Positions 481 through 55,292 of a DNA stretch of 64,000 bases are shown in pieces. A program made the position numbers and the translations under genes. The DNA comes from a virus. The notes under the pieces were generated by a model. It was given only the letters and a program-made list of their open reading frames with translations, ran no database searches and was not told the DNA's origin. The stretch lies in IMG/VR virus record IMGVR_UViG_3300028840_004447; one strand, given 5' to 3'. Positions within the stretch are counted from its first letter, which is position 1. The number at the start of each line of letters is the position of its first letter.

Positions 481-2127
481 ATGGCAGTTCAACTGGTCAA
501 GAAATCTGAGAAGTTTGCACGGTCACTGATCCATCAGGGCAAAATCAATGACAGCTCCTCATGGTCGTTTTCTGCCGCGGACGGTAACAAGCTGTTAGGA
601 GATGGGAACTGGGAGAACTATGCCAAATGGCATTTGGGCAAGGACACGGATGCTAACAAGGAGACAAAGGCGTATTACAAGTATCCGTTTGGCAAAAATG
701 GCAAGGTCTATATGTCTGCACTCAGGGCTATCAGGACCAGGGCCGCACAGGCAGGAGCGACCACGATCTTTGATGCGGCGGGCCGGCTGTTGAATGCTGC
801 TAAAGCAAAACTAGACAAAAGGGGAATCACAATGAAAAAGGAAATCAGATCTTATCACGTACCGGACGATTTGAAGATTCGGGCAAAAGACGGTGAAGGA
901 TCCGACGGCATATTTGAGGGATATGCAGTTGTATGGGATTCTGTCGACAGCCACGGCACCCGTTTCAAGAAAGGATCATTCACCAAGACACTTCAGGAGA
1001 GAGCCGACAAGGTCAAGGTCCTGTACAACCACCTCACCACCGAGCCGATCGGGAAACCGCTAGAGCTTCTGGAAGACGAAGTCGGTCTGTTTGTACGGGC
1101 TCAGTTGACCGAGGGCGTTCAGCGGGCCGATGAGACACGGCTGAACATTGAGGCCGAAGTCCTTGACACCCTGTCATTCGGATTTCAGACCATTGATTCG
1201 AAGCGTGCGGCTGATAAGGTGACCGATATCACTGAAGTCAAGTTGTACGAAATTTCTCCCGTGACCTTCGCTTCCAATGAGAAGGCCAAGATTACCGGGA
1301 TTAGGTCCGAGGATATGGTTACAGCGGACAATGATCCTGACTCGATCAAGCTCGAAGACATTGCTGATCGGCTGGAGGAAGTTCGGAAGAGATTGCTAGA
1401 AGGCGATGATGGTGCTGCGCCTTCCAGCGATGATGACCTGGATACGCGGGATGATGATCAGGCAGGAGCGAACTCTGCCGATGACCCGATTATCCCACAA
1501 TTGAGGGCTACGGACTTTGACGAATCAGCCCTGATTGAAGAGCTGTATGAAAAGGGACAGCAATTGAATTATGCATTGCGAGTTACCTTGTCCGATATCT
1601 GGTGGGCTGACGATATGGACAATGAGGCCACTTTGGCTTCCTTGGATACAGCCATTTCGAAATACCATGCAGCCTATTTGAATTGGTCCCGTGAGTTCAT
1701 CGGCAAGTTCTGGGAAGAGCGCCATTCGGTCATGCAGTCGGACGATCTGGATGGGGTTTTCAATAAGGAACTCCGCACACTCGGGAAGACAATCGAAACC
1801 ATAGCGGCCGAAACCTCTTTCACCGCTGATGAATTACGAACACTTTCGAGGGGTAACCTGTTATCGCTTGAAAGCCGTTCAAAACTGGCCGAGCTGCCTG
1901 AACCCATCCAAACAGCTCACCAGGAGAAGCGCAGGACGGTAGTGGAGATGCTCTGCAACGAACTGCGGTCGGGTAAGTTCACAAAAGCCGAGTCTGAACG
2001 ATTCCGCTCACTTTTGGAACTGAACGATGCGCGGGCCGAGGATGAGCATCGGTCGACGGACAGCGAGCTTGCAACAACGGTCCTGTCGGCATTGGATCGC
2101 TTGAGATCGGATATCTCAGGATCCTAA
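481..2127 (+). CDS. HK97-family prohead protease with N-terminal extension and C-terminal scaffold-like region
   Basis: FEGYAVVWDSVDSHG...F.K.L....VKVLYNH...PIG...EDEVGLFV...LSFGF...LYEISPVTFASN motifs. In-frame internal ATG at 832 with RBS AAAGGGG. Confidence 0.88.
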   Translation: MAVQLVKKSEKFARSLIHQGKINDSSSWSFSAADGNKLLGDGNWENYAKWHLGKDTDANKETKAYYKYPFGKNGKVYMSALRAIRTRAAQAGATTIFDAAGRLLNAAKAKLDKRGITMKKEIRSYHVPDDLKIRAKDGEGSDGIFEGYAVVWDSVDSHGTRFKKGSFTKTLQERADKVKVLYNHLTTEPIGKPLELLEDEVGLFVRAQLTEGVQRADETRLNIEAEVLDTLSFGFQTIDSKRAADKVTDITEVKLYEISPVTFASNEKAKITGIRSEDMVTADNDPDSIKLEDIADRLEEVRKRLLEGDDGAAPSSDDDLDTRDDDQAGANSADDPIIPQLRATDFDESALIEELYEKGQQLNYALRVTLSDIWWADDMDNEATLASLDTAISKYHAAYLNWSREFIGKFWEERHSVMQSDDLDGVFNKELRTLGKTIETIAAETSFTADELRTLSRGNLLSLESRSKLAELPEPIQTAHQEKRRTVVEMLCNELRSGKFTKAESERFRSLLELNDARAEDEHRSTDSELATTVLSALDRLRSDISGS

Positions 2128-2177
2128 CTGATAACAGGGAACCAACCCACTTTTTCTACTGATAAGGAGACCAAATC

Positions 2178-3410
2178 ATGAAAGAAACAGACCTGAACAA
2201 AATCAATGACATGCTGGGCCGTACTTTCGAGGAGTTCAAGAAACGCAATGATCAGGCCCTCGAGGAAATGGAACAGCGAAATGGCGTTGAGACCGGGGAG
2301 ACCCGGGCGGCAGTCGAGAAGGTTGAATCGGATATCACCGAGATTCGCAAGGCCATGAAAGAGATTGAGGTCCGCATGAATCGACCCGACTTCAGCCCGG
2401 AAGGGGAGCAGACCGAGGAGCAACAGCTCCATCACCGCGCCTTCGAGAAGTACTTGCGCGTCGGTAAGAACCCTGATGAAGATTCCCAATTTGCCTTCAC
2501 GCCTGATGAGCAGCGTGCTCTGACTTCGCAGTCGGACGGCTCCGGCGGATTCCTCGTGCCGATCGATTACGAGGGTGGGATCATCATGAATGCCTACAAC
2601 CTTGCCGAACTGCGACCCATTTGTCAGGTCGGGACCACGGGCAGGGATGTTGTCCAGCTGGGTGCGCTTTCCAAACCCTCCGTCGGATGGGGCAGGGCCG
2701 GTGTGCAGATCAGTACGCAGACCTTGACCGCAGGCGGACGCCGAATCACCATATATCCTCTGTATGGTCTGACGACCGTGGCCGTGGATACCTTGGATGA
2801 TGCGGAAGCGAACATCGAGCAAGAACTGAATGACGCCTTCTCCCGGGCAATCGCCGAGGCCGAGGATGATGCCTATGCAGCCAGCGCGGGTGATGACAGC
2901 CCGAAGGGCGTGGTAGCGGATACGAATGTTCAGGCCAATTATGTTGCCTCGGGCGTTGCAGCCGCTATCTCGGACGCCAATAACAACGGCGTGGATGTCC
3001 TGATCGAAATGCTTCAGTCGCTGAACAAGATCTATCGTCGGAACGCGACCTGGGCCATGAACAGCACGACCGAGGGTCTGGTCCGTAAGCTGAAGAACGG
3101 TGAGGGTGACTACATTTGGGCAATGGGCGTGGGTGCTACCGGAACCGTCGGGGCCAATCCTCCGACTCTGCTTGGTCGCCCGATCGTGAATCCTGAAGGA
3201 ATGCCTGATGTGTCCGCTGGTACCTACCCGATCGTAATCGGTGACTTTATGGCCGGCTACAAGATCCGGGACAACCGCGGCCTGTCCGTGCAGCGTCTGG
3301 TGGAGAAGTATGCGGACTACGATCAAATCGGCTTCAAGGTCAAGAAGAGAACCGGCGGTATGGTTACTCTGCCCGAGGCCTTCGTCCCGATGAAAATCGC
3401 GACCAGCTAG
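2178..3410 (+). CDS. Major capsid protein, HK97 fold
   Basis: N-terminal coiled-coil delta domain, then SDGSGGFLVP..., GDDSPKG, NATWAMN, LLGRP, GDF..GY.I.D, KRTGG. Position after the protease and a strong RBS fit. Confidence 0.93.
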   Translation: MKETDLNKINDMLGRTFEEFKKRNDQALEEMEQRNGVETGETRAAVEKVESDITEIRKAMKEIEVRMNRPDFSPEGEQTEEQQLHHRAFEKYLRVGKNPDEDSQFAFTPDEQRALTSQSDGSGGFLVPIDYEGGIIMNAYNLAELRPICQVGTTGRDVVQLGALSKPSVGWGRAGVQISTQTLTAGGRRITIYPLYGLTTVAVDTLDDAEANIEQELNDAFSRAIAEAEDDAYAASAGDDSPKGVVADTNVQANYVASGVAAAISDANNNGVDVLIEMLQSLNKIYRRNATWAMNSTTEGLVRKLKNGEGDYIWAMGVGATGTVGANPPTLLGRPIVNPEGMPDVSAGTYPIVIGDFMAGYKIRDNRGLSVQRLVEKYADYDQIGFKVKKRTGGMVTLPEAFVPMKIATS

Positions 3411-3476
3411 CAATAGCTGATTCGGTAATCCTCAGGAAAAGCTAACTCTCAGAAATCCGAAAAGGAGACCAATATC

Positions 3477-5492
3477 ATGAAACATTTCACCCGAATTTCC
3501 GCAATCCTCATGGTCCTGTTCCTGGTTTTTGCAGGAACAGCGTCGGCCCAGCAATACTACAGGCCCTGGGTCAAGACCGTTGAGCTCACTGTTCAGAATC
3601 CCCCGGTCTTTGAATCGGGACTTGGCCTGGCTGACTCCGGCGACGAATGGTTTGTCAATTCCAACGCATCAGGAACCGCTGCCGGTACCAGTTGGACAAA
3701 TGCATGTCTGACTATTGATGCTTGTATCAATCTGGCTACTGCGTCAAACGGGGACATTATCCATATCTCCTCCACCCATGCCGAGTCCTTTACAGCGGCG
3801 GACGGTTTTGACGTGGATAAGGCTGGCCTAACCCTGATCTTCCATGGTGAGGGACAGAACCAGGCCACCTTGACCTTTGCCGATACTGATGCAACCGTTG
3901 CATGTGGCGCGGCCAATGTAACCATCTTTGGTGGCCGCTATCTGGCAGGAATCTCCGCGGTTGTGCTTGGCATAGCTGTTGAGGCTACCTGCGATAATTT
4001 CACGCTCATCAATCCTGTCTTCCCTGAGCCCGCTACATCCTCGTATGAATTTCTGGATGCGATTGATCTGGCTGCGGGAGCTGATAACGTGAAGATCATC
4101 AATGCTTGGGCACGGTCCGCTGATGCTACCGGGGCTGCTCATTTTATCGAGGCCGGCAACGGGGTAAACAACGGGCTGGAAATCATCAATCCTGACATTG
4201 AGGGTGAATACTCTGTCGCGGCCATTTGGTCCGACACGGCTGATCTGGAAACCCGGATCGCTGGCGGTGTTATCACCAATATGACCAATGGCCAGCATGC
4301 GGTCGAGTTCACCGCGGCTGCAACAGGTGTCATTCAGGATATCCTGTTGAGAACGGATGCTCAGGGCACTGCCTTGGATCCGGGCTCCCTTGGTATGTCG
4401 AATGTCCTCTGGGATGATGATGCGGTGGCTGATGCCACGGCTGGTCCTGTTGTACTCGGTGCTCTCGGTCCTGCAACTATAGGTCCGATCAACTCCACCA
4501 CCACGGATTCTGTCAATGGTAAGATCGGGACGGATACCGAGATGGCGGACAGCTCTTTGTATGATCTGCTCGGTGCAGGTGCCAAGACCCTTGCTATTTC
4601 TGCATCAGTAGGTGCGGATGTGGATGGGGCCACGACCGATACCCTCCAGGGTAAGATCGGTACGGATACCGAGATGGCCGATAATTCCTTGTATGATCTG
4701 CTCGGCGCGGGAGCCAAGACCCTTGCTATTTCGACTTCTGTCGGGTCTGATGTAGATTCCGCTACCACGGACAATCTGCAAGGAAAGATCGGTACGGATA
4801 CCGAGCTGGCTGACAACAGCCTCTATGATCTGCTCGGTGCAGGATCCAAAACGCTTGACCTTTCTGCCGCTATTGGTTCCAGTGTCGACGGGACCACGAC
4901 AGATACCCTGCACGGGAAGATTGGAACCGATACCGAAATGGCTGATAGCTCCTTGTATGATATGCTCGGGGCGAATAATGCAACTACCACGGATTCGCTC
5001 AATGGTAAGATTGGAACCGACACCGAAATGGCGGATAGTTCCTTGTATGACATCTTGCTTCAGATGGAGCGGACGGCCACAGGTTCCACGGCTGTCATGG
5101 CCAACGGCGATACGATTTTCACCATTGCCGGCGGACCAATTAAGATCGTTGAACTGGTCTCGGTCTGTATCACCCTGAATGATGCCACAGCATCCACTCT
5201 GCAATATTCGGCTGATCCCACAGTCGGAGCTGCAACGACCATTTCAGGAGCTTCGGCTTCTTTGGCAAATGCGGCCGCGGGATCTGGTGTAGTTCTGAAT
5301 ATGACTGCGCTTGCAACCGCTCCAGACGTAGTGGATCCGCTTGTTGACCTCGGTGGCGTTGATACCCGCGGGATAATTGTGAATGAGGGTATTATCACAA
5401 TCGTGGTTGGGGTCGGAACAACGACCGGTACCTGGAAGCACTATATCAGGTATCAGCCGCTTGCACCCGGCGTGACTGTTACCGGCACATAG
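3477..5492 (+). CDS. Signal-peptide-bearing, repeat-containing protein next to the capsid gene (putative head decoration/fibre)
   Basis: N-terminus MKHFTRISAILMVLFLVFAGTASA. Beta-rich Ala/Thr/Asp/Gly composition with internal 44-aa repeats. Confidence 0.55.
   Translation: MKHFTRISAILMVLFLVFAGTASAQQYYRPWVKTVELTVQNPPVFESGLGLADSGDEWFVNSNASGTAAGTSWTNACLTIDACINLATASNGDIIHISSTHAESFTAADGFDVDKAGLTLIFHGEGQNQATLTFADTDATVACGAANVTIFGGRYLAGISAVVLGIAVEATCDNFTLINPVFPEPATSSYEFLDAIDLAAGADNVKIINAWARSADATGAAHFIEAGNGVNNGLEIINPDIEGEYSVAAIWSDTADLETRIAGGVITNMTNGQHAVEFTAAATGVIQDILLRTDAQGTALDPGSLGMSNVLWDDDAVADATAGPVVLGALGPATIGPINSTTTDSVNGKIGTDTEMADSSLYDLLGAGAKTLAISASVGADVDGATTDTLQGKIGTDTEMADNSLYDLLGAGAKTLAISTSVGSDVDSATTDNLQGKIGTDTELADNSLYDLLGAGSKTLDLSAAIGSSVDGTTTDTLHGKIGTDTEMADSSLYDMLGANNATTTDSLNGKIGTDTEMADSSLYDILLQMERTATGSTAVMANGDTIFTIAGGPIKIVELVSVCITLNDATASTLQYSADPTVGAATTISGASASLANAAAGSGVVLNMTALATAPDVVDPLVDLGGVDTRGIIVNEGIITIVVGVGTTTGTWKHYIRYQPLAPGVTVTGT
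4500..5057 (+). repeat. Intragenic tandem repeat, 132-bp (44-aa) period
   Basis: Five copies of the core GKIGTDTE(M/L)AD(S/N)SLYD. The first two cores start at 4518 and 4650. Confidence 0.92.
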
Positions 5493-5499
5493 TATATAG

Positions 5500-5566
5500 C
5501 CGTGGGGATAGGATGACGATCCGAAAAACCGAAATCCTGGCCGGTCTTCCCCACGGTCTGCTTTTT
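5500..5566 (+). terminator. Bulged hairpin plus T-run (possible terminator/attenuator)
   Basis: CCGTGGGGA (5500-5508) pairs with TCCCCACGG (5548-5556), inner AGGAT/ATCCT, followed by TCTGCTTTTT. Confidence 0.55.
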
Positions 5567-5618
5567 CCAGGAACCGAACAGACAACAACAACTCATTTAG
5601 TATAAGGAGACCTATATC

Positions 5619-5999
5619 ATGAAAACTGATCCCAAGAGCAATTTCACCATTGAGGATGGATTGGATGCACAGTCGAGAACAGCAGATACCTACTACACCA
5701 GCCCAGTTGTAGATCACGGTGATGCACCGGCTGTCACTTTCCACGTAAGCTGCGGTATCTTTGCCACGTCTTTCGTTGCTACTCTTCAGCACAGCGACGA
5801 CGGTGTAGCCTATACCGATGAAGCAGATACGTCATACGGCAATACCGTGAGCTTAACCCTGCTGGCCGCGGGTGAGGGGAATATCCATTGCCCCAACCCG
5901 AGAGCCCGCTATACCCGACTCAAGGTCGTCATTGGCGGCACTTGCGAATTCAGCGTGACCAATGTCTTCGGACCCCTGAGGTATGTCGATCAGGGCTAA
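5619..5999 (+). CDS. Small beta-rich head-associated protein (putative capsid decoration/cement)
   Basis: 126 aa, located in the head module, with the same leader as the capsid gene. Confidence 0.5.
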   Translation: MKTDPKSNFTIEDGLDAQSRTADTYYTSPVVDHGDAPAVTFHVSCGIFATSFVATLQHSDDGVAYTDEADTSYGNTVSLTLLAAGEGNIHCPNPRARYTRLKVVIGGTCEFSVTNVFGPLRYVDQG

Positions 6000-6136
6000 A
6001 GCCCACAATTGACGCCTCGCAGGCTGGTGCAATACGGGTGGCAGTTTGGACAAATGTAGCTCCGGGCTGTCCACCCGTATCTTACAAATGAAGTCAGGAC
6101 AAACCAGGACAACCTTGCCAGGAGAGGAGAAAGACA

Positions 6137-6877
6137 ATGAAACTCATTTTTTTGGAGAAAGCAAGAGGAAGTGAGAACGGGATTTTTGTCCGTGCTTACG
6201 AGGAAGGGGAGATTGCGGAAGTAACAAACCCCGACCTGATCCGGGCATTTGTAGAAGAAATGAAAGTTGCCCGACCACCAAGCGATCTGGAACTGATGGA
6301 AGCCGAGCCGGAAGATGATGCAGAAGGCGCAGCGATTCCTGACGATGACAGCGATGACGGCTCGACTGTAGTGGATTCTGATCCCGAGCCGGCAGATAAT
6401 GCAGAAGGTGCAGCGACCTCTGACGATGACAGCGATGACTCGGAAAAAACCGAGGATCCTGAGGCCGAGGTGGCAGAAGGCGCAGCAACCTCTGACGATG
6501 ACAGCAATGACAAACCCGCGGATCTGAATTCAATTGTGGATTCTGTCCTTTCAGATGAGATTGACGACGGGTTTGATCCAAATGCAATCGAAACTCCTGA
6601 AGGGGATACTGAGATTGAAACCGCGGATGATTCCGAGGTTGAGACACCCGCTGCCGATACCCCTGAAACACCGGAGAAAGAAGAGAAACCAGAAACCCCT
6701 GAGGATCCTCAACCGAGCGTGGGAATGGTCAAAGAAGGGGATCTGCTCAACGCATCAGGCAAGCCCTATAAGTCCCATGGGATTGCCATGGGAGCTCTGA
6801 AGATGCGAGGGCTGAGTCTGGATGATCACAAGCTCGTGGAAGTTCCCAACGGTTACGTCATTCGACCGAAGAAATAG
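6137..6877 (+). CDS. Very acidic low-complexity hypothetical protein
   Basis: Three copies of AEGAA(I/T)(P/S)DDDS(D/N)D. RBS GGAGAGGAG. Confidence 0.6.
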   Translation: MKLIFLEKARGSENGIFVRAYEEGEIAEVTNPDLIRAFVEEMKVARPPSDLELMEAEPEDDAEGAAIPDDDSDDGSTVVDSDPEPADNAEGAATSDDDSDDSEKTEDPEAEVAEGAATSDDDSNDKPADLNSIVDSVLSDEIDDGFDPNAIETPEGDTEIETADDSEVETPAADTPETPEKEEKPETPEDPQPSVGMVKEGDLLNASGKPYKSHGIAMGALKMRGLSLDDHKLVEVPNGYVIRPKK

Positions 6878-6885
6878 AGGTTACC

Positions 6886-7452: not shown

Positions 7453-7465
7453 AGAGAGGAAACCG

Positions 7466-8471: not shown

Positions 8472-8472
8472 T

Positions 8473-9334: not shown

Positions 9335-11551
9335 ATGACGACACCTAAGAAAAAGAAACCCGTTGCGAAGAAGGCTGCTCCCAGGAAAGCAGCTCCGAAG
9401 AAAGAAGCCCCGAAAAAACCAGCCGAGCCCGAGCTGAAGAAAGTCGCTGTAATCTGCGGACCGGGATTGGACAATCATCTCGGAGAAGTTGCCGATTTCC
9501 TAAAGGCAAACTATGAGGTCAAGATCTGTATCACTGCCGATCTGGAGACCATGTTCAATGCAGTCAAGTGGGCTGATGTAGTTTGGATTGAGTGGGCAAA
9601 CCAGACCGCCGTGGATGTAACATCTCTCGGCCATCTGATGTACCATAAGCAAGTGATTCTCCGCCTGCATTCATATGAGGCCTTTATCCCACAATTAGCT
9701 TACATCCATTGGGCCGCGGTCACGGATCTGATCTTTATAGCCGAGCATATCAAGGCCAAGGTCCTCAGGGATTATCCGACGATCAAATATAACGTGAACA
9801 GGATCCACGTTATACCAAATGGGATTGATTTAGACCGGTTCAAAATGCCGGCTTCCAAGAAGTATATGACTGCATCAGGCAAGGACATTGCCTATTTGGG
9901 ATATCTGAATTTCAAGAAGGGGACTCAGTTGATGCTCACGGCATTTGCTGAGCTCGTTCGGAATGACCCCGAGTTCGTTCTGCATATCGGGGGAGCATTC
10001 CAGGAAGAGCGATATATCGAATACCTGAACCAGATGTATGACCAGCATCCTGAGTTGAAGGACAAGATTCGCTTCCACGGCTGGATTGAGGATCCAGTCA
10101 AGTTCCTTTCTGACAAAAGCCATGTGATCTGCACCAGCTTGCTAGAGTCTCAGGCCAAGTTTGTTATGGAAGGGATGGCCATGGGCTGCAAGCCCCTGAT
10201 CCATAACTTCGTTGGGGCAAAGGGCATTTATCCTCCAGGCCTGCTTTGGGAAACGATTGGCCAGTTCTGTGATATGGCTCGGACTGGTGGCAATCGGGTA
10301 GTGTATCGGGATTTCATTCACGATAACTATAACACCAAAGACATAGTCAAGCGAATTGGGGATCTGATTGACAAATCGGATGAGAAGAAGGAAACATTCA
10401 AGGAAGGGGATCAGCCACCGATTAAGCTGTCAGTGGCGATGATCATGAAAGATGAAGAGAAGAACCTGCCGAGGTGCTTGGATTCCATAAAGGGGATTGC
10501 CGACGAATTGGTAATTGTGGACACAGGCTCGACAGATAAAAGCATGGAGATAGCAAAGAAATACGGGGCCAAGATCTATGAGCATCCGTGGCAGGACAAT
10601 TTCTCCTTGCATCGGAATCAGTCAATCGGCTACTGCACAGGTGACTGGATCCTCACAATCGATTGCGATGAAGAGCTGACCGGGAACGTGGAAGGCCTGA
10701 AGACTACCCTGTCGAAATTGCAAGATATCTATAACGCAGTTTCTATCAATCTCAAGGACGCGAATCAGGACGTTGGGAATGAGGTCAATGCAACTCGGAT
10801 CTTCAGGGCAGGCAAGGTCAAATATCGACGGGCCTGGCACAATGTTCCTATTGCAGAAGGCATGGATGAGTATGGGGCGGTGCTATATGCTGACGCGACC
10901 CTTATTCACTATGGATCAATCAATCAGATGGGTGAAGAGGATACGAAACGGAAGGCCATCAGGACGAAACAGTTGATTGAGAAATCCTTGGAGGACGATC
11001 CTGAAGATTGGGAGCTGTATTTCTACTTGTTCCAAACGTATGGGACAGAAGAGAAGTGGCAGGCTGCGGTGAATTGCGGGGAGAAATACCTTGCACAGAG
11101 AAACAATCTCCCCGGCTTTCAGTTGGCCATCTACCATTCCATGATTCGGGTATATGCAATCCATTTGGAAAACATCCCGAGGGCGATGGAGCTGTTTCAA
11201 GAAGCAATTATCCTTCTGCCCGAGGACTTAGATGTGGCTTACGTTCAGTGCGAGCTAGGTGTTCTGACCGGGCGTAAGGATATGATATTGGAAGGGGCGC
11301 GAAGATTCAACGTTTTGTATTCTACGTTCTCCAGGAATCCATCGGCAAAGGGCGGTCGGTTCATCTTCCATCTGAATCCCGATTCGCTATTTTTCTGTCT
11401 TAAGCACTCGACTGATTGTCTGATGCAGGACGGGGTCGAGTCCTTAAAGCTTCTGCAAAAGTCCGTGGGTCTCTTCCCGCAAGATCGGCGGGCTGACGTA
11501 GAAAAGCAGGTAGCAGAAGTGCTACAGCCATTGGGTATTGACACGAATTAA
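9335..11551 (+). CDS. Multidomain glycosyltransferase (GT-B/GT4-like + GT-A/GT2-like + TPR-like) with Lys-rich N-terminus
   Basis: VIPNGID...F, KGTQL, S..ESQ...MEGMAMG (GT4). LSVAMIMKDEE.NL.RCLDS...DE.VIVDTGSTD...W..NFS..RN......W...IDCDE (GT2). Helical C-terminus. Confidence 0.88.
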   Translation: MTTPKKKKPVAKKAAPRKAAPKKEAPKKPAEPELKKVAVICGPGLDNHLGEVADFLKANYEVKICITADLETMFNAVKWADVVWIEWANQTAVDVTSLGHLMYHKQVILRLHSYEAFIPQLAYIHWAAVTDLIFIAEHIKAKVLRDYPTIKYNVNRIHVIPNGIDLDRFKMPASKKYMTASGKDIAYLGYLNFKKGTQLMLTAFAELVRNDPEFVLHIGGAFQEERYIEYLNQMYDQHPELKDKIRFHGWIEDPVKFLSDKSHVICTSLLESQAKFVMEGMAMGCKPLIHNFVGAKGIYPPGLLWETIGQFCDMARTGGNRVVYRDFIHDNYNTKDIVKRIGDLIDKSDEKKETFKEGDQPPIKLSVAMIMKDEEKNLPRCLDSIKGIADELVIVDTGSTDKSMEIAKKYGAKIYEHPWQDNFSLHRNQSIGYCTGDWILTIDCDEELTGNVEGLKTTLSKLQDIYNAVSINLKDANQDVGNEVNATRIFRAGKVKYRRAWHNVPIAEGMDEYGAVLYADATLIHYGSINQMGEEDTKRKAIRTKQLIEKSLEDDPEDWELYFYLFQTYGTEEKWQAAVNCGEKYLAQRNNLPGFQLAIYHSMIRVYAIHLENIPRAMELFQEAIILLPEDLDVAYVQCELGVLTGRKDMILEGARRFNVLYSTFSRNPSAKGGRFIFHLNPDSLFFCLKHSTDCLMQDGVESLKLLQKSVGLFPQDRRADVEKQVAEVLQPLGIDTN

Positions 11552-16237: not shown

Positions 16238-16407
16238 AGGTGAAATCAGATTTTGGCGCAAAGTTCGAGGCTGAACTGTGGCGAGATGGCAAATTGGTAC
16301 CTGATGAGCCTAAACCCACAATTGACCCGGATGCGGTTTTAGTCCAGAAAGATAGTGCAAGTATTATGCTTGCCGAGTTAACCAAAAAGGAGAAATCCCA
16401 TGAATGA
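16234..16407 (+). CDS. Small hypothetical protein (57 aa, not in ORF track)
   Basis: ATGA overlap with the upstream stop. MKVKSDFGAKFEAELWRDG... resembles the N-terminus of the next gene. Confidence 0.5.
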   Translation: MKVKSDFGAKFEAELWRDGKLVPDEPKPTIDPDAVLVQKDSASIMLAELTKKEKSHE

Positions 16408-18650: not shown

Positions 18651-20045
18651 ATGGGTAAAGGCACGATACAATCTGATCTTGGAAGCGGACATTACTCCGT
18701 CGAACTGAACTTAGCGCGCGACGGATATAACGCAACTGTTGCCAGTATCAATGCTCAGATTACGACCTTGACTGCATATATTGCAACGCTGCCGGCTGGG
18801 GCTGAGAAGAACCTGGCTGAACTCAGGAAGACTGCTCTAGAGAAACGCCTGACTTATATGGCCGCAAACTTCCCGGCTGATCCCACAATTAATGCTTGGT
18901 GCGCGGATTCGACCGAAGGACTGTCAGGAGAGGTCGGCACGATTGAAGTTCCAGGTGAACGAGGTTCAGTCAATATCCAGCCCGGGTATGGTGGCAATGC
19001 TGTTTATGATTCTGCCCGGGACGGACAGCTCGGCCATCCGCTGAACAATCCACCGGAAGGAACTTGGTATAATTTGGCGATGCTTCCTGGCTGGCAGAAA
19101 TGGCAACCGACTTATCGGTATGGAACAATCACAGCTAAGCCAACTGTAGATACGGCAGATGTGACTCTGGATGCAGCCACAAGCAGTCAACAGTCATTAG
19201 ATGTTAATCAGACACCGACTTTGTCTGATGTTCCGATTTCGTATGAGGATTGCGATGGTGATGCGTTCAGTGTAACAGATGAGGTCTTAGTCAAATTCAC
19301 GAGTCAGAACTGGGCAAACCCGGTAATTGTGGGCTTTAAGGACAATCCCACTCCTTGCTATGTGGCTCCGACCGTTCAGCTAGGGAACCAGTTTGCGAAG
19401 GTTTATCAGTTGCAGCTATCATCCATGTTTGCTTATGGTGGGACAGGAGTGGGGCCGTTCAATTTCTCGGCTTCAGTAGGAACTTTTCTTACACCTAACA
19501 CGGGGCTCAATCATTCCGTATTAACTGTTTGGCAAGCTCCAACGGGTAGTGGATCTGCAACGATTACCGTGGATGATACGGGTCGGCCGCCTGATAAGGA
19601 TCAGCATACGATTACGTATCACAACACGCAACAGATCCCGAATGATACTCCGTTAACCGATAACTATTTGGGGGGTTGGACAGGTATTGTGTCCGCATCT
19701 ACTCAATACACGGGATATGTTTCATCAGGGTCACAGTGGTTCACACACCCTTCCCTAACTCCCGCAATAGGTACGATTAATATCGGGGATTTTGCAGTCA
19801 TGGGGATGAACCCAACTTGGACACCAGGCATGCCTTGTTATGATCTGTTTTTACCGTACCTTGCAAAAGGGGTTCCCTATATTGCATGCCAGATTATTGA
19901 TAAGGGGTATAATGGTGGGGTCGGATCTATAAAGACAGAATACAAGTGGTGCGAGAACTGTTCAGGTCAGTGGATAAACGTTTTCAGGGGCCGACCAGTT
20001 GTTGGCCGCGCATCTATGTCTATATTGCCAAATCAATTTTGCTAA
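18651..20045 (+). CDS. Tail tip/baseplate-associated protein
   Basis: MGKG.I....G.G.Y.V, AWCAD.TE.LSGEV.TIEVPGE, P.YR.G.IT motifs. Synteny. Confidence 0.55.
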   Translation: MGKGTIQSDLGSGHYSVELNLARDGYNATVASINAQITTLTAYIATLPAGAEKNLAELRKTALEKRLTYMAANFPADPTINAWCADSTEGLSGEVGTIEVPGERGSVNIQPGYGGNAVYDSARDGQLGHPLNNPPEGTWYNLAMLPGWQKWQPTYRYGTITAKPTVDTADVTLDAATSSQQSLDVNQTPTLSDVPISYEDCDGDAFSVTDEVLVKFTSQNWANPVIVGFKDNPTPCYVAPTVQLGNQFAKVYQLQLSSMFAYGGTGVGPFNFSASVGTFLTPNTGLNHSVLTVWQAPTGSGSATITVDDTGRPPDKDQHTITYHNTQQIPNDTPLTDNYLGGWTGIVSASTQYTGYVSSGSQWFTHPSLTPAIGTINIGDFAVMGMNPTWTPGMPCYDLFLPYLAKGVPYIACQIIDKGYNGGVGSIKTEYKWCENCSGQWINVFRGRPVVGRASMSILPNQFC

Positions 20046-29478: not shown

Positions 29479-29505
29479 TCCCACAATTAGCCAGGAGACC
29501 GGGAT

Positions 29506-29928
29506 ATGAAACCAGCAGCAATTGTGATACACCACAGTTTGACAAAAGATTCGAAATCTGTTTCATGGTCAGCCATCCGTCGCTATCACAAACAAACCTG
29601 CGGGTGGCGTGAAATTGGTTATCACTATGGAATCGAAATGGTCGGCACAGAACCTGAGATCTTTGTCGGGCGTATGATGAATGAATACGGCGCTCATTGC
29701 AAGGACTCGGGCATGAATCGCATTTCACTAGGGATCTGTTTAGTCGGGAACTTTGACGAGGAAGCTCCGCCCACAATTCTCTGGGAGCGAGGGTTAGTTC
29801 TAGTTCGGAGCTTGCTCGATCTGCTGGACATTAGTCCATCTGATGTTTACGGCCACCGGGATTTTTCTGACAAGTCCTGCCCTGGGGATATGTTTGATAT
29901 GGATCAGTTCAGAAAGGATTTGATATGA
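29506..29928 (+). CDS. Endolysin, N-acetylmuramoyl-L-alanine amidase (Amidase_2)
   Basis: IVIHHS, IRRYH...GW..IGYHY, GAH, N..SLGICLVGNFD, GHRDF..KSCPG zinc-amidase motifs. Confidence 0.93.
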   Translation: MKPAAIVIHHSLTKDSKSVSWSAIRRYHKQTCGWREIGYHYGIEMVGTEPEIFVGRMMNEYGAHCKDSGMNRISLGICLVGNFDEEAPPTILWERGLVLVRSLLDLLDISPSDVYGHRDFSDKSCPGDMFDMDQFRKDLI

Positions 29929-30275
29929 ACCCGGAAATCAGGGAAATTATCCAGACAATCAAACCCGAGATCTTTATGCTGTTAGGCTGGGCGTCAATTG
30001 TGGGATTCCTAGCCCTAGTAGCACAGGGGATCATCAGGAGCTATGTGGCGTATTATTTCTTCCTGACGAATGAGCAACTCTGAGTGAACACAAAGGTCCG
30101 AGTTCGCGGACACGACGGAGTGATCACGAAATACAACAGGAAGAATATCATCATCCGAGTGGCTGATGGCGTGGAGCTGATTGATATGCGCGATTGGCGA
30201 AAGGAGAAATGGGCAATCCTGTATAACGGAGAGTTCAAACGTGTAGCTGATATAGGAAAAGGAGAAGAATCATGA
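29925..30275 (+). CDS. Membrane protein with MscS-like beta domain, interrupted by in-frame TGA at 30081-30083 (readthrough or pseudogene)
   Basis: ATGA-coupled to the endolysin. TM helix, then ...EQL*VNTKVRVRGHDGVITKYNRKNIIIR in the same frame. Confidence 0.55.
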
Positions 30276-37585: not shown

Positions 37586-38301
37586 TAGAAGATATTCCTG
37601 TCCTTCAGATCCCCGTGGAATGCATGCAAAGATCCAAGAAAGTGAGTGAAGTTCCCCGCTTCGATACGGAGTTCTTCTGCAATGTGCTTCATCAGTTGGA
37701 TTGTAAGGAAAACGTCCGCGCCGAAGAACTTGATGAAATCACAGGATCGCTGGTTGTAGATCAGATGCAGCTTGTTTGCCCGAATCATGAACTGGTAGGT
37801 CAAACTGCACGGAACTCTGTCACGTCCGCCCCAGTTCATCATATCCTGGTGCCGATCATACATGGTCATGATGGCCTGCCGGGAGTTCGGCCGAAGTCGG
37901 AGTTCATTTACGACATAGCTGATCTGTTCTTGCCACCGCTCCGCGTATGAATAGGAGAACTTGCCGTCACGAAGGAAAGGTTCCCACAATTGCTTGTTCT
38001 CTTTCCAAGCTGTGCCGGGGTTCAGGGTTGCCCCGACCGGCATTCCGAACAGACCGCCCAGCCGTTCTCGCTCTTCGGCCTTCAGCCAAGCAGCATTCAA
38101 ATTGAGGTACTGAATGAGCTCGGACAGGTCTTCATATTTGGTAAGTGTGTATGCGTACCCGAAAAGCTCGATGGTCTGGAAGTCTGGGTTATCCGCAACC
38201 TCCTGATCCTGAACCGTGGCCGTTTGGTATCTGATCCCCATTTCAAACAGATCCCGCTCGACCTCTTTCACCATTTCTAACGTGTTCTGATAAATCCTCA
38301 T
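37585..38301 (-). CDS. Thymidylate-synthase-family enzyme with dCMP-type specificity residue (putative dCMP hydroxymethylase/methylase)
   Basis: SRQA, catalytic PC, QRSCDFIKFFGAD (Asp where dUMP enzymes have Asn177), GSLH.F. Confidence 0.8.
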   Translation of the reverse strand: MRIYQNTLEMVKEVERDLFEMGIRYQTATVQDQEVADNPDFQTIELFGYAYTLTKYEDLSELIQYLNLNAAWLKAEERERLGGLFGMPVGATLNPGTAWKENKQLWEPFLRDGKFSYSYAERWQEQISYVVNELRLRPNSRQAIMTMYDRHQDMMNWGGRDRVPCSLTYQFMIRANKLHLIYNQRSCDFIKFFGADVFLTIQLMKHIAEELRIEAGNFTHFLGSLHAFHGDLKDRNIF

Positions 38302-39828: not shown

Positions 39829-40698
39829 CTATTTCTCCTTCCTGAATACCAAAATGGTTTGGTATGCCGGAACTTTGATATCCAGATCCGGAAACCGTTT
39901 GTTGTATGTGTTCATGAACAGGGTCGGCGGATAATGGGGCAGGAGCGCCATACAAACGAACTCCATCCCGAGGCCGAGAAGAATCTCCCCGTACATCTTA
40001 TGGAGCAGGTACGGGGCTTTGTTCTGAACCATGTCCTTCACGCCGATGCAGAAATGCCCGCCAGCCTTCAGCATGCCCAAGCTGTCCTCATAGATCTGCC
40101 GAATGTCGTCCCAATATTGTGGAGTTTCCTTCATCCGGCCGAGACCCTTCTGTTGCAAATAGAACGCGGTGCTGGGTTTCCCGAAGATCTTTTGATGCTG
40201 ATCCCCGGAGTACGGGGGATTGTTTACAATTAGGCCGAACTTCCTGCGACCGAGATGCTTGCGGATATCCCGTGCGTCTCCATCCACGATGTTCCACTGA
40301 ATGGACTTGGGGAGTCCCTGCTCCTTCCAGACATAGTTCACATTTGCCTGAGCATACTCGGCAAACTCCAGTTCAACACCGGCTGCACACCTGCCCAGCA
40401 TCATGGCTTCGACGGCTGTTGTCCCGACGCCAATTGTGGGATCAAGCACCCAGTCTTTCGGTTTGGAAAATTCCTGAATGCACCAGCGGGCAACATGGAG
40501 AGGAGTCTTGGCAATATGGGCGAGGTCGGCCTGTTTGTTGTAATACTGCCGGCGCTCCAGTTTGCTATACGGGGTTCCATCAGGACGGATCAGGACGCCG
40601 CGGAATGTCTTGGGCTTGCAGAAGTCACAGTTGCAGTGATAATCCTTTGGCGTCCGTTTGAGGGGCTTTACTTCAACAGTCTCAATCTCATACTTCAT
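39829..40698 (-). CDS. Amino (N6-A / N4-C type) methyltransferase
   Basis: VLDPTIGVGTT (SAM binding), GDAR, NNPPY (catalytic). N-terminal HCNCDFC. Confidence 0.82.
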   Translation of the reverse strand: MKYEIETVEVKPLKRTPKDYHCNCDFCKPKTFRGVLIRPDGTPYSKLERRQYYNKQADLAHIAKTPLHVARWCIQEFSKPKDWVLDPTIGVGTTAVEAMMLGRCAAGVELEFAEYAQANVNYVWKEQGLPKSIQWNIVDGDARDIRKHLGRRKFGLIVNNPPYSGDQHQKIFGKPSTAFYLQQKGLGRMKETPQYWDDIRQIYEDSLGMLKAGGHFCIGVKDMVQNKAPYLLHKMYGEILLGLGMEFVCMALLPHYPPTLFMNTYNKRFPDLDIKVPAYQTILVFRKEK

Positions 40699-48163: not shown

Positions 48164-48207
48164 ATTTTCCTCCTGGCTGTTGGGTTGATGTTTGATTGTT
48201 AAGAAAG

Positions 48208-48236
48208 AATATATCATCAGTACGAATGTTTGTAAA
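48208..48236 (-). promoter_or_regulatory. sigma70-type early promoter repeat
   Basis: TTTACA-N17-TATATT. Confidence 0.8.
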
Positions 48237-48256
48237 CCCCTTTTTTGCATTTTTTG

Positions 48257-48290
48257 AAAAAAAATTAGGGCCACCCTTTCGGGTGACCCT
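48257..48290 (-). terminator. Intrinsic terminator
   Basis: AGGGTCACCC-GAAA-GGGTGGCCCT followed by a T-run that doubles as the next promoter's UP element. Confidence 0.75.
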
Positions 48291-48844: not shown

Positions 48845-48907
48845 TTTGATCTCCTTTCTGTGTTGTGTATGTGGTTTGTTTTGTCTCATGATCTAGCAAT
48901 AGTATAC

Positions 48908-48924
48908 TGCCAAACCTGTGCCAA
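48908..48924 (-). promoter_or_regulatory. sigma54-like (-24/-12) promoter
   Basis: TTGGCACAGGTTTGGCA, with GG-N10-GC spacing. Confidence 0.6.
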
Positions 48925-49213: not shown

Positions 49214-49774
49214 CTATTTCGACAGGATCCAGGTCGCTATCTGATCCTCGGGGCCATATTTTGCATGTAACTCGACCCGAAGACTGTGATCAGAAAAGAA
49301 GGAATTGTAATCATGATAAAAGCAATGCTTCGACGGAACCCGTCCTTCGATTCCGACTGATGAAGTTAGGAAGATCAGCCCGTTGGAAATCCGAACGTGC
49401 TCTGCAAAGATCCCGGCCAGGTCCTGAGGAGGAACATGCAGAAGGACATATGAAGAGATAACCAGATCAAATGCCCCCTCTGCTTCAGGGATCTGGTGGC
49501 CGTCCCATCCATTTGGCCGTTGCCCTGTTGCAGCTAGACAGCACGTTCGCATGGATTCCACAAAGTCATACATGGTCAGCCGAGCGCGGAACAGCAAACC
49601 TTTCTTCTCTAGGGCTGAATAGATCCGACCATAGCCAGACCCCACCTCGCAAATCTTTCGGAGAGGTTCCGTTTGCAGCAAGGCGGACAGGTAGTCCAGT
49701 TCAATATCATGGGTTTCTCCGCGGTAGGACTTCCCCCGCGCTTCCCAGTATTCTTTCGGATTGTAAGTGGTCAC
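49214..49774 (-). CDS. Class I SAM-dependent methyltransferase (small-molecule/glycan type)
   Basis: YWE.R, ICEVGSGYGR, FDLV.S..VL.HV. Confidence 0.85.
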   Translation of the reverse strand: MTTYNPKEYWEARGKSYRGETHDIELDYLSALLQTEPLRKICEVGSGYGRIYSALEKKGLLFRARLTMYDFVESMRTCCLAATGQRPNGWDGHQIPEAEGAFDLVISSYVLLHVPPQDLAGIFAEHVRISNGLIFLTSSVGIEGRVPSKHCFYHDYNSFFSDHSLRVELHAKYGPEDQIATWILSK

Positions 49775-50388
49775 TTTCCCTCCTGAAGGGTATAGGTTTT
49801 TGCAGCCCGGTCGAACTTGACTTCGAGGATCAGATCGGGCTTTGTCCGTTTGGGGTTTCTCATTATGGCTAGAGCCGTGTTCAGATTACGAGCATCGTAT
49901 CCGGTCTTCGTTAGCAGATCATCCTGAGCCCATGTGGGCTGTTCTGCAAAGGCCTCTCGGAGTAGGGCTGTCTTGGTCTTCTTCTTGGGCCCGGTCGGCT
50001 GCTTCCGTGGTGGCCGTTTGTTTGCAACGGGTCCTCTGGGTTTCCGATCCCGTTTCCCTGCGTTCGGGTTGCTATAACTGAAGATCAGGGGCACATCTGA
50101 TGCTTCCCGGTTGGCCAGATCCTCGGCCGTGATTGTCTTCGGGGGATTGTCCTTCGCGTACTGAATCCCTGCACAGATCGGGCAGGACTTGATATGCTCC
50201 CAGAAGTTATATTCAGGATGCTTCGGGCATTTGAAGTTACCCACTTTCATATCCTCCTTTCGGTGATGGCAGATCGGACAGTTGTCCTCTTTCCAATCAT
50301 AATGAGGAAATCCACAGAACTTGCAGAAGTGATGGAACTGGGGATCGAAGATGAACCGCCGTTCTTCAGTCATTGTCTTTGGCCTCAT
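49771..50388 (-). CDS. Winged-helix-like DNA-binding protein, family member 3, with zinc-ribbon N-terminus
   Basis: Several CxxC pairs. TKTALLREAF.EQP.W.QDDLL.KTGYD.RNL..AL.I.RNPKRTK. Confidence 0.65.
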   Translation of the reverse strand: MRPKTMTEERRFIFDPQFHHFCKFCGFPHYDWKEDNCPICHHRKEDMKVGNFKCPKHPEYNFWEHIKSCPICAGIQYAKDNPPKTITAEDLANREASDVPLIFSYSNPNAGKRDRKPRGPVANKRPPRKQPTGPKKKTKTALLREAFAEQPTWAQDDLLTKTGYDARNLNTALAIMRNPKRTKPDLILEVKFDRAAKTYTLQEGK

Positions 50389-51002
50389 TCTCCCGCTGGA
50401 TCTGCTTGGCCATCCAGCATATCATAATAAAGAACAGAACTAGCCAAATGAGGAAGCAGGGCATAGTGGGGAATGAGTCCGCGATCAGAATCAGCATACT
50501 CGCCCCAAGTGTTGCACCTACCAAAACTTTACCCGCGTTGCATATGAATTGCCGTATCATCCTGTTAGCTCCTTATCCAGAAAATCCTGAAGGACCTGGA
50601 CAATCGTCAGAGCATCCTCGATTGGGTGATGCATCTGATATGAGATGGAATGGTTTTCATTGTGGATCAGTTTCAGCCACGTGCCGTCTCGATCCTCAAC
50701 AACCTCTGCTCGGATAGGGTCACGCATCGGGATTCTCCTCGTAGAATTTCTCCCATCGTTTGGACTCGCCCGGCTTGCAGGTCAGATGGTGCTCAACCTG
50801 TTCGGGGGATTCTGCATATGCGCCACAGTCATTACAGACATGGACACCAGCCTCTTCGATTTCGGTATATTCCCGTTCGGGGATCTGTTCATCAGGAAAG
50901 CAGGTCTCGCACATCGGGTCACCGCATTTCTCTTCCCATTCGCCCATTGATCTAACCTCCGTGGGCAGGATCCGAAGACCCTGCCCTGGTGTCAATTGTG
51001 GG

Positions 51003-51743
51003 TTAAGCAGCCTTCAGGGCTACCATATAGTCGTCAGCGACCCCGTGAAGGGTATCAGTCTGGCGAGCAATCTGCCACAGGCTGGTCTCTCTCATCAGCC
51101 GGGTGGCTGCACCGTGCCAGGTGTACAGAGTCGGGGCCTCGGTCTGCGCGACCTTCAGCTCCTCATCATGGCAGGCCAAGAACTGGGGGAATTTCCCCGG
51201 GCTGAAGACCCCGCGGTCCATTGCATCATAGGTCAGGACCTTGAAGGCTTCCGATTCCAGGGGGAACTGATTGAGCTCATCCAGCCAGTCCACCTGATAC
51301 TGGATCTTCGAAATGAGCTGGCCGACTGCCCGATGAGCAACCTCGTGGATCTCGGCCTCATCCAGATGAGCAGTGTGCCGACGGAACTCCAGGAACTCTC
51401 CCGAGAAGGCCATGTTAGAACAGACGAAGACCTTCGTGCCGGCTGTGATTCCCAACGCGAAAGTCTTACGGATGGAGTTGCGGAAGCCGATCTGCCAACC
51501 GATCTTGTCCGTGCCGCCGTCCAGACCCCATGTGCCGAAGAGGTTATCCCCATCGGCTGCGAGGGAGTAGTCCCGATCCGTTACCACCAGCCCGTGGTCC
51601 TGAACTGCCTTGCCCAAGCAATCGAGCACCTTGCCGTGGCTGTACGGGCGCCAGGTTTCGGTGAACTCAGGTTCCTTGACTGCCCTTACCGCTGCCTCAC
51701 TTACCCTTGTACCGTGTCCGTGTTCTGCGATCCTTGCTGTCAT
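51003..51743 (-). CDS. DUF932-family protein
   Basis: P.SH...L, FRNS......GI.AG..VFVCSNM.F, RRHT. Confidence 0.8.
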   Translation of the reverse strand: MTARIAEHGHGTRVSEAAVRAVKEPEFTETWRPYSHGKVLDCLGKAVQDHGLVVTDRDYSLAADGDNLFGTWGLDGGTDKIGWQIGFRNSIRKTFALGITAGTKVFVCSNMAFSGEFLEFRRHTAHLDEAEIHEVAHRAVGQLISKIQYQVDWLDELNQFPLESEAFKVLTYDAMDRGVFSPGKFPQFLACHDEELKVAQTEAPTLYTWHGAATRLMRETSLWQIARQTDTLHGVADDYMVALKAA

Positions 51744-51787: not shown

Positions 51788-51816
51788 AATGTATCACGGA
51801 ATAATTTCTTTGTAAA
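51788..51816 (-). promoter_or_regulatory. sigma70-type early promoter repeat
   Basis: TTTACA-N17-TACATT. Confidence 0.75.
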
Positions 51817-52300
51817 CCCCTTTTTTGAAAAAAGATCAAAAAAGTTTCAGCCTAACTTCGCGGCCTCTTTCAGACGGTCGATGGCCTTTAGAAGAGCATT
51901 GATCTCCCGGTTGTGGGATTTCTTCTCATTATCGGCTGCGATAATATGGTCGGCGATTTCCAGTCTCAGAAGATTGATTGCACGTTCCATTTGATTCTCC
52001 TTTCGGGGATCTGCGGACAGATCCCCAGTCGGTTAGTAGATTGAATCCCCATCACAGATGGAGTGGCTCAGGATAACCTCTTTGCAGTTGATGATTGCGG
52101 GCATCTGAACGACCGCAATGGGCTGAACTGCCCGACAAGGATCAAACTCAGGGAACTGCACCGAGGCCTGCTCGGGGTATAGGATCCGACCAGACTTCTG
52201 AAGGTTGCGAGTGGCTGTTTTGATCATTTCGGATTCGATTAGGTCCTGATTCATTTTCCCCTCCTTGGGGTGCCCTGCCCGAAGGCAGGGCGGTTGAGGA

Positions 52301-52526: not shown

Positions 52527-52543
52527 TGCCAAATCTGTGCCAA
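52527..52543 (-). promoter_or_regulatory. sigma54-like (-24/-12) promoter
   Basis: TTGGCACAGATTTGGCA, 16/17 identical to the 48908 copy. Confidence 0.6.
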
Positions 52544-52933: not shown

Positions 52934-52962
52934 ATTGTATACTATCTGCAAACGTTTGTAAA
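52934..52962 (-). promoter_or_regulatory. sigma70-type early promoter repeat
   Basis: TTTACA-N17-TACAAT. Confidence 0.85.
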
Positions 52963-52984
52963 CCCCTTTTTTGCATTTTTTTGA

Positions 52985-53365: not shown

Positions 53366-53394
53366 ACAATAACACATTTCCTAACCTTTGTAAA
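53366..53394 (-). promoter_or_regulatory. sigma70-type early promoter repeat
   Basis: TTTACA-N17-TATTGT. Confidence 0.85.
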
Positions 53395-53437
53395 CCCCTT
53401 TTTTGCATTTTTTTTGAAAAAGTTCAAACTTTTTTTG

Positions 53438-54433: not shown

Positions 54434-54467
54434 TTTTGTTTCCCCCTTGTGTTATTGTGTTAAGAAT

Positions 54468-54496
54468 ACAATAACACATCTGCAAACGTTTGTAAA
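54468..54496 (-). promoter_or_regulatory. sigma70-type early promoter repeat
   Basis: TTTACA-N17-TATTGT. Confidence 0.85.
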
Positions 54497-54525
54497 CCCC
54501 TTTTTTGCATTTTTTTGAAAAAAGT

Positions 54526-55292
54526 TCAAACTTTTTTCTGAGGACGAAATCCATCGGCCTCGGTCGGCTGACCGGCCAGCAGCTTGCGGAGCTCCTGAGC
54601 ACAGTGGGAATATACCGGGCCGGATCCGTTCTCGGCCTTATCTGCCCGCTCTGTCCATTTGTCAATCAGCTCCTGAACCCTAACTTTGTCCCGTCGTTGC
54701 ATGTTCCTAATCTCCTTTGACCTGTTCTAGGGATTTGATAAATCTCATCAGCCCCTTCTCTGTCTTGGGGATCTTCAGACCCCGAATGGCATGGGCTGCT
54801 CGTATGCGAAGTCTCTTCAATCGGATTCTCTTCTGGAACTGCTCATCATATTCTTGGATCCTGTTCCGGTGCCACGTGTCCCCTGGTTCGCGGCCATCCG
54901 ACCGCCGAAACCTGTACTCGATCTCGGGGTCCTCAGGATGGATCTGATGCACGATGAACTGGGTCTTTGTCAGCCGTTTGACCCTGCCCGTATAGATCCG
55001 ATCCCCGCGGGTGCTGCTCAGGGTTACTCCCACAATTGACCCAATCTGAAGTCTGCTCATCCATTCACTAAGTTCCATTGTAAATCTCCATGACTTTTTG
55101 GACTTGATCCTCGGACAGTTCCCGACGAAGTTTGGCACCGCTCAGGATCCTGATCTCTCTGCCTGTCCTCATATTGGTTGCTCGCCAGCCTTGCTTATTC
55201 TTCCGGATTTGTTTTTCAATCCGAACGGCTGTCAACCGCCCACTCACCTTAGCCACGTACAGTGCCCCAACTTTGACTTCCTTCTTCAGCAT
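54526..55292 (-). other. Cassette of small hypothetical genes (54526-54702 and the ORFs at 54707-55138 and 55068-55316, true starts probably internal)
   Basis: Open frames with RBS-like leaders, downstream of the promoter at 55321. Confidence 0.45.

Follow-up and report, generated by a model that had tools for sequence, protein, structure and literature searches.

A sharply conserved, dispersed 9-bp word in an uncultured tailed phage as a candidate recognition site for a phage-encoded protein

We analyzed a 64-kb stretch of the genome of a tailed phage (IMG/VR record IMGVR_UViG_3300028840_004447), hereafter the window, in which a 9-bp word, CCCACAATT, recurs as the core of a longer asymmetric site. 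Fourteen exact copies are present in the window (9 on the + strand and 5 on the − strand), and 17 (11 on + and 6 on −) in a 77,857-bp circular assembly that was rebuilt from overlaps of identical contigs. An earlier sequence-only reading had counted 13 (8 and 5), which was correct in essence and missed one + strand copy. We tentatively regard CCCACAATT as a duplex-DNA recognition word for a phage-encoded protein, stoperator-like or dispersed-operator-like in character and lying outside the stoperator family; this is the leading possibility among those considered, held with less than even confidence. The copies are listed below in window coordinates unless a genome position is given, with sense and antisense referring to local transcription (ORF, open reading frame).

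1494..1502, + strand: sense, within the prohead protease/scaffold gene 481-2127, codon offset 2
6002..6010, + strand: sense, in a spacer, 2 nt past the stop of 5619-5999
9688..9696, + strand: sense, within the dual glycosyltransferase gene 9335-11551
16315..16323, + strand: sense, between 15887-16237 and 16400-16987 (or in a doubtful 57-codon ORF); next start 77 nt on
18882..18890, + strand: sense, within 18651-20045; convergent with the copy at 19325
19325..19333, − strand: antisense, within 18651-20045
29480..29488, + strand: sense, 1 nt past the TGA of 29134-29478; the ATG of the amidase endolysin gene 29506-29928 follows 17 nt on
29770..29778, + strand: sense, within the endolysin gene; flanks atypical
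29996..30004, − strand: antisense, within the 52-codon ORF 29925-30083; convergent with the copy at 29770
37983..37991, + strand: antisense, within the thymidylate-synthase-like gene 37585-38301, over the peptide Q-L-W-E
40432..40440, − strand: sense, within the N6/N4 DNA methyltransferase gene 39829-40698, over conserved D-P-T-I codons
47269..47277, − strand: sense, 1 nt past the TAA of the SSB-like gene 47279-48274
50994..51002, − strand: sense, immediately past the TAA of the DUF932 gene 51003-51743
55029..55037, + strand: antisense, within 54707-55138 (weak ProQ-C-like match)
Genome 66931, + strand: copy outside the window
Genome 67022, − strand: copy outside the window
Genome 72351 (contig L017 4014-4022), + strand: copy outside the window, in the divergent control region

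The word is the most significant 9-mer of the genome (Poisson 1e-20), and its core occurs at ~30x the expected count. Dinucleotide shuffles gave an expectation of 0.68 copies in the window with a maximum of 4, and Markov models of orders 0-4 gave 0.45-0.94, in agreement with the ~0.5 chance copies estimated earlier. Next to these backgrounds we applied a codon-preserving shuffle, in which every protein and the codon usage of each gene were kept; 14 copies were observed inside ORFs, where shuffles of the same permissive ORF set gave 1.4 on average and never more than 6. The excess thus persisted under both the Markov and the codon-level backgrounds. One-mismatch variants behaved differently. 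Those pointed out by the sequence-only reading (36241, 6532, and 10514) exist, but as a class such variants are at or below chance (15 vs ~18.5 expected), and recognition of the core is therefore all or none. When the literature was searched in full text for the 9-mer or its complement, the papers found dealt with unrelated eukaryotic or virus subjects, and none with phage motifs.

The full consensus is ~16 bp long, T-N-A-K-CCCACAATT-R-R-C, and is asymmetric, with no dyad symmetry. In the genome-wide logo of copies, T was found at −4 in 13 of 17, A at −2 in 14, K at −1 in 15, R at +1 in 16, and C at +3 in 11, while the 9-bp core is fully invariant and the flanks are alike in sense and antisense copies. 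In the window, 11 of the 14 copies have A at −2 and 9 have RRC after the core, so that the flanks described earlier were borne out. Copies within genes occupy all three codon offsets. Because antisense copies have normal flanks, the reading frame is immaterial, and the excess survives the codon shuffle, selection acts on duplex or single-stranded DNA, and the earlier view of a DNA-level site stands. For the same reasons, namely both strands with the same flanks, all codon frames, and survival of the shuffle, a protein recognition site is the simplest reading.

The copies are concentrated in the non-coding part of the genome: 7 of the 17 lie in or at spacers, six of them sense (6:1). Four sense copies (6002, 29480, 47269, and 50994) start 0-2 nt past a stop codon (P ~5e-8 under uniform placement), exactly as had been noticed from the sequence. 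This adjacency is partly forced, because the linker from the stop to the hairpin or ribosome-binding site (RBS) is the sole unconstrained segment of these spacers. Several boundaries of late modules are preceded by copies, namely those of the packaging/head (genome 72351), neck/tail (6002), post-tape-measure (16315), and lysis (29480) genes. Overall, there is one copy per 4.6 kb, or about one locus per 6 kb round the circular map, and when tight clusters are merged, the spacing of loci is more even than random (P ~0.01, post hoc). The association of arm with strand was not significant (Fisher p=0.16). Two intragenic copies could be compared with homologs, and in both the peptide accommodates the word by synonymous or conservative changes; in the methyltransferase copy, GAT CCC ACA ATT codes for the conserved D-P-T-I/M.

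At some junctions, the word is followed by RNA hairpins. A 13-bp UACG hairpin (47267-47238) follows the copy at 47269 and precedes the RBS and ATG of a 55-codon gene, a 10-bp UUCG hairpin (50986-50963) follows the copy at 50994 and precedes an RBS and ATG, and a strong hairpin (6032-6080) lies downstream of the copy at 6002, before the RBS and start of 6137-6877. The two UNCG hairpins with RBS that had been described are thus present, but they do not belong to the motif as such: only 3 of the 17 copies are followed by an unusually stable fold, and the closest retrievable relative, G001, has such a hairpin without the word. At the G001 junction after the DUF932 gene, the order of stop, 16-nt linker, UUCG hairpin, RBS, and ATG is kept with an unrelated linker, whose word does not recur elsewhere in G001. 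These results indicate that the hairpins are not part of the element, and since the G001 junction keeps the hairpin architecture without the word, the word colonized a pre-existing free linker. This colonizing behavior fits a word selected for its presence and density, not a composite RNA element. In addition, the SSB-like and DUF932 genes share their last nine bases, GCT GCT TAA (Ala-Ala-stop; 47279-47287 and 51003-51011, − strand).

We next compared the phage with its relatives, comprising whole contigs of 35-82 kb and partial loci with DNA polymerases 40-63% identical to that of the phage; by DNA polymerase, the best relative showed 69% identity, its polymerase being encoded on a 62-kb contig of run SRR31656008. 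CCCACAATT was absent from the relatives with 40-63% identical polymerases. In an IMG/VR scan with the 14-mer TGATCCCACAATTA, only single chance hits were found among the matches listed, and the loci fetched were not enriched in the core. As far as these sequences show, the word is confined to this phage. In this comparison, so are the structural module and many early genes, too many for privacy to single out a reader. A different kind of repeat was observed in the distant relative L006, where 5820-6850 holds ~29 tandem 36-bp units with the conserved 9-mers AGTGAACCA and AAGAAACCC and variable 9-nt spacers; this array looks iteron-like and not CRISPR-like.

The window itself is found 100% identical on contigs from several sediment and seawater metagenomes, and across public contigs of four runs, only one single-nucleotide polymorphism was seen over window 1-20000. 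No close relative was found among GenBank phages. Rightward genes (1-34.4 kb) encode the prohead protease, an HK97-type capsid protein, a tape measure protein, the dual glycosyltransferase, large fiber proteins, and the amidase endolysin. Leftward genes (34.5-64 kb) encode a family A DNA polymerase, the thymidylate-synthase-like enzyme, C5 and N6/N4 DNA methyltransferases, an Asn-synthase-like amidotransferase, a UvrD-type helicase, an AEP primase, and Pam3 gp33/gp34-like proteins. The 14 kb beyond the window carry TerS, TerL, portal, SNF2 helicase, and ThyX genes, together with genes for a T5orf172/MUG113 protein and a 73-aa HTH_17 protein and a 1.1-kb divergent control region. Pfam and PHROGs scans of the whole genome, in which many small proteins received no assignment, detected no integrase, no ParA/B partition system, and no repressor family; nor did they detect a phage RNA polymerase or sigma factor, an absence that these small proteins leave unproven. 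The only regulator-like find was the HTH_17 protein, which is common to the relatives. Because none of these functions was detected, the phage looks virulent.

Several features of the genome were noted alongside. GATC occurs 682 times in 77.9 kb, ~2.2x the expectation from base composition and at a similar frequency in relatives, and it is contained in five motif copies, as TGATCCCACAATT. The phage encodes several DNA methyltransferases and a probable base-modification toolkit. An Rfam int-alpA RNA motif lies at 5501-5571 (+ strand; 46.9 bits vs a gathering score of 35.8), in the spacer after a 671-aa capsid-adjacent gene. No transfer RNAs were found. Outside the window, the interval from the TerS-like gene to TerL (L017 4852-5363) contains three tandem ~169-bp repeats, each ending in CTTGACCCACTACGAA and carrying short inverted repeats, which could be a pac region or small-RNA genes.

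The early arm has a highly conserved repeat of its own, consisting of GGGGTTTACA, 17 nt, and TAnnnT, which we interpret as a sigma70-type promoter carrying an A-rich UP element. At least 12 such promoters lie on the leftward arm, 11 of them within the window as listed here, and two rightward ones lie at the head of the late arm.

44449-44481, − strand: sigma70-type promoter
45972-46006, − strand: sigma70-type promoter
46984-47016, − strand: sigma70-type promoter
48206-48240, − strand: sigma70-type promoter
51788-51820, − strand: sigma70-type promoter
52934-52966, − strand: sigma70-type promoter
53366-53398, − strand: sigma70-type promoter
54468-54500, − strand: sigma70-type promoter
55321-55353, − strand: sigma70-type promoter
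56233-56267, − strand: sigma70-type promoter
63971-64003, − strand: sigma70-type promoter

This repeat divides the early arm into many small transcription units, and several of the promoters (e.g., 48240 and 52966) have a hairpin upstream, one with a T-run. Relatives L002 and L003 have the same type of promoter. By comparison, the sigma70-like promoters of the 40-kb late arm number only two, and both lie at its head. In the divergent control region (L017 3070-4210; genome ~71.4-72.55 kb), one leftward and two rightward sigma70-like promoters were found together with ~12 iterons, CCGTATGC/GCATACGG, in three clusters (L017 3459-3788), and this region is probably a replication origin or an operator array. 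The CCCACAATT copy nearest to a promoter lies in this region, upstream of the second rightward promoter, with 50 nt between its end and the −35. No common −10 element was found downstream of the word. Separately, two near-identical 16-mers, TGGCACAG(G/A)TTTGGCA (48908-48923 and 52527-52542, − strand), show the GG-N10-GC spacing of sigma54 promoters; they lie ~9-19 nt upstream of annotated ORF starts, with little or no leader room, and sigma54-like matches in the window overall were at chance.

As candidate readers of the word, we considered three winged-helix paralogs and the private T5orf172/MUG113 protein. The paralogs (43372-44232, 48308-48889, and 49771-50388, all − strand) share a ~75-residue C-terminal domain, for which an alignment-based model (predicted local distance difference test, pLDDT, 77) showed winged-helix topology; all of its structural matches were winged-helix DNA-binding domains, with weak E-values of 0.04-0.2. 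The sequence-only reading had singled out these proteins for binding assays, and the shared winged-helix-like domain was upheld, but nothing links them to the word, because relatives that lack the word carry them too. The T5orf172/MUG113 protein scored above the Pfam cut-offs and is private to the phage; among 5.8 billion proteins, no homolog was found beside itself. Its gene alone has two copies of the word just upstream, a convergent pair 91 bp apart. A small HNH nuclease gene (46380-46703) is also private to the phage. The proteins whose stop codons adjoin copies include the DUF932 and SSB-like proteins, neither of which is a regulator.

In the mechanism we favor, a sequence-specific protein encoded by the phage would read the asymmetric site, with CCCACAATT as its invariant core. 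The protein would probably bind as a monomer, because the site lacks a dyad, and dispersed asymmetric sites of monomeric phage regulators provide a precedent (PMC6550527, PMC9283540). Selection on the DNA word itself would maintain about one locus per 6 kb round the map, and new copies would settle where constraint is least, in stop-to-hairpin/RBS linkers and at peptide positions that tolerate the word. Once bound, the protein may punctuate or insulate long transcription units at gene junctions, or otherwise organize the chromosome, with a function like that of stoperators or dispersed operators and without an immunity system. Both the phage origin of the reader and the effect of its binding are what we infer from the pattern of sites.

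Several observations weigh against this proposal. No copy of the word overlaps a mapped sigma70-type promoter, 10 of the 17 copies are intragenic, and no lysogeny or repressor module was found in the genome scans. The orientation to local transcription, claimed as 9 sense to 4 antisense, was corrected to 10 to 4 in the window and to 12 to 5 genome-wide, which is not significant (binomial p=0.14). The core is also less degenerate than is usual for transcription-factor sites. The winged-helix domain of the paralogs also occurs in relatives without the word, and de novo k-mer scans of five whole and six partial contigs of relatives revealed no sharp equivalent word. The two closest relatives do show a 4- to 7-fold excess of CCCAATTG (11 vs 2.4 expected and 4 vs 0.6), but its flanks are not conserved; this may be a weak lead that a related specificity exists in the lineage, and does not amount to homology of the two systems.

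We ranked the readings in the order of phage-protein site, nick sites, host Chi-like word, priming signal, promoter, and RNA signal. Recognition by a phage-encoded site-specific nickase, with the word marking nicks in packaged DNA as in T5, phiKMV-like phages, and Pseudomonas phage tf, would be a rather unlikely account. Phage tf, whose nick sites are the exact 9-mer TACTRTGMC with 14 copies per 46 kb, un-nicked near-miss variants where tested, and a shifted consensus in relatives (PMC3517423), is the closest formal match to the statistics seen here, 17 exact copies in 78 kb with near misses at chance. The virulent appearance of the phage, its private HNH and T5orf172/MUG113 genes, and the fairly even spacing would suit a nickase as well. 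However, the localized nick (sci) sites of described systems all lie on one DNA strand (PMC3517423), whereas 11 copies here are on + and 6 on −, and the excess in spacers has no reason under a nick model. Among public contigs of the four runs over window 1-20000, six copies were bridged at high coverage without breaks and low-coverage fragments ended elsewhere, although contigs cannot show nicks. A variant of this idea, also rather improbable, is a private 'self' mark read by the phage's own nuclease-type protein (T5orf172/GIY-YIG-like or HNH), which would nick or process both arms and be oriented mostly with replication and transcription; it would amount to a two-strand, arm-switching form of localized nicking or to a phage-encoded, Chi-like self-recognition system. 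A word determined by the host, either a Chi-like RecBCD/AddAB signal or another host-protein site accumulated to protect or manage DNA ends, is unlikely in our view. The exactness of the word, its density of 1 per 4.6 kb, and its 71% arm-relative orientation bias resemble Chi, and if the genome ends are close to the terminase genes, the G-rich complement AATTGTGGG would in 12 of 17 copies be on the strand read by a RecBCD-type enzyme that enters at either end; the word is lacking in relatives of other G+C content, which probably have other hosts. Core and flanks together nevertheless exceed any known Chi in length, nothing apart from permissiveness explains the excess at spacers and stop codons, and the arm-strand association falls short of significance.

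That same association bears on a replication signal, in which the word would be a loading or start site for the AEP-type primase/helicase on the lagging-strand template, with a strand switch at the iteron cluster. The iteron-rich, origin-like region does lie between the two arms, the word would be on the lagging-strand template in 12 of 17 copies for forks leaving that region, and the two closest relatives share the primase/helicase module as well as the weak CCCAATTG excess. But primases are known to recognize sites of ~3 nt, a grid of one site every 4.6 kb, with five of the sites on the wrong strand, would be a poor one for priming, the flanks of CCCAATTG in the relatives are not conserved, and with a p of 0.16 for arm by strand, we consider this reading quite unlikely. 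A phage-specific middle or late promoter, starting at the purine after the core and read by an unrecognized phage RNA polymerase or sigma-like factor, appears very unlikely. It would account for the purine after 16 of 17 copies, for six sense spacer copies that precede gene starts by 17-190 nt (the lysis cassette and the head of the late operon among them), for hairpins right after the would-be start that resemble 5' stabilizers, and for the scarcity of sigma70-like promoters on the 40-kb late arm. Against these stand the lack of an RNA polymerase or sigma factor in the Pfam and PHROGs scans, five antisense copies with normal flanks, several sense copies that are mid-gene and far from any start, and a distance of >600 nt to the next start at four sense copies; in addition, no sharp counterpart of the motif occurs in relatives that share the early promoters, and the G001 hairpin junction lacks the word. 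Since there is no common −10 and a host-polymerase start ~7 nt downstream of 29480 would fall within the RBS, a promoter would need a T7-like enzyme, which is not visibly encoded. Least probable by far is that the sense copies act in the RNA, for instance as processing sites for an endoribonuclease or as boxA/nut-like antitermination elements between cistrons. The order of stop, 9-mer, stable UNCG hairpin, and RBS, seen at 47269 and 50994 and in looser form at 6002, would suit such a role. Yet five antisense copies with the same flanks, vs ~0.25 expected, cannot be chance, the hairpin link is not general (3/17) with at least one hairpin ancestral and independent of the word, Rfam gave no match apart from the unrelated int-alpA motif, and neither the int-alpA element nor the TerS-TerL repeats contain the complement of the word. 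As a general explanation, an RNA signal is ruled out by the antisense copies, frame independence, and codon-shuffle survival. An explanation outside those listed has a small but real share of the probability.

Dispersed words are already known in several phage families, and the kind itself is not new; those that are understood are few, namely stoperators, phage-polymerase promoters, nick sites, and Chi. Among them, CCCACAATT is unusually clean, with no tolerated variants, and its carrier is an uncultured phage, to all appearances virulent, that is known from metagenomes of sediment and seawater. The 16-bp site offers a simple handle for a lineage without a cultured member, a handle whose value hinges on finding the reader.

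The stoperators of cluster A mycobacteriophages are sites of L5 gp71-type repressors, asymmetric and ~13 bp long, with 20-30 dispersed copies predominantly in one orientation (PMC6550527, PMC9283540). The phages that carry them are temperate and have a cognate immunity repressor together with an integrase or parABS; some of the sites are true operators within the early lytic promoter, and the repressor, when bound to a site, blocks elongation (PMC6550527). The present system is alike in form, with 17 copies of a ~16-bp asymmetric site in 77.9 kb, dispersed genome-wide with many at gene junctions or stop codons and with a specificity private to a narrow phage group; in both, the genome is divided into two arms of divergent transcription, the leftward one encoding a family A DNA polymerase. 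It differs in that the copies are oriented 12:5, 10 of 17 are intragenic, the 9-bp core is completely invariant, no copy acts as an operator within a recognized promoter, and no integrase, partition, or immunity-repressor module was detected. Membership in the stoperator family, to which the sequence-only reading had likened the sites, is therefore not supported, given that no such module was detected, that no copy overlaps a mapped promoter, and that the orientation bias falls short of significance. Nick sites as in phage tf, phiKMV-like phages, and T5 share with CCCACAATT a virulent phage, an exact 9-bp word per 3-5 kb, and relatives with a different consensus or none, and here too the consensus is exact (17 copies) with near misses at chance (15 vs ~18.5 expected). 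Unlike them, the present copies lie on both strands (11:6) and favor spacers. Chi is likewise an exact word of similar density, with ~70% orientation bias and intragenic copies in any frame, whereas the 9 bp plus flanks found here are longer and enriched in spacers. In T7-type phage-polymerase promoters and T4 late promoters, a purine comes after a short, sharply conserved word. The copies of CCCACAATT resemble them in this respect, and some lie just upstream of genes with 5' hairpins; they differ in that no polymerase or sigma-like factor was detected and that five copies are antisense and several sense ones mid-gene. The word thus departs from each named family in a defining respect, and the identity of its reader would therefore probably bring to light a new way of marking a genome or else a new role for a phage protein of the winged-helix or GIY-YIG type.

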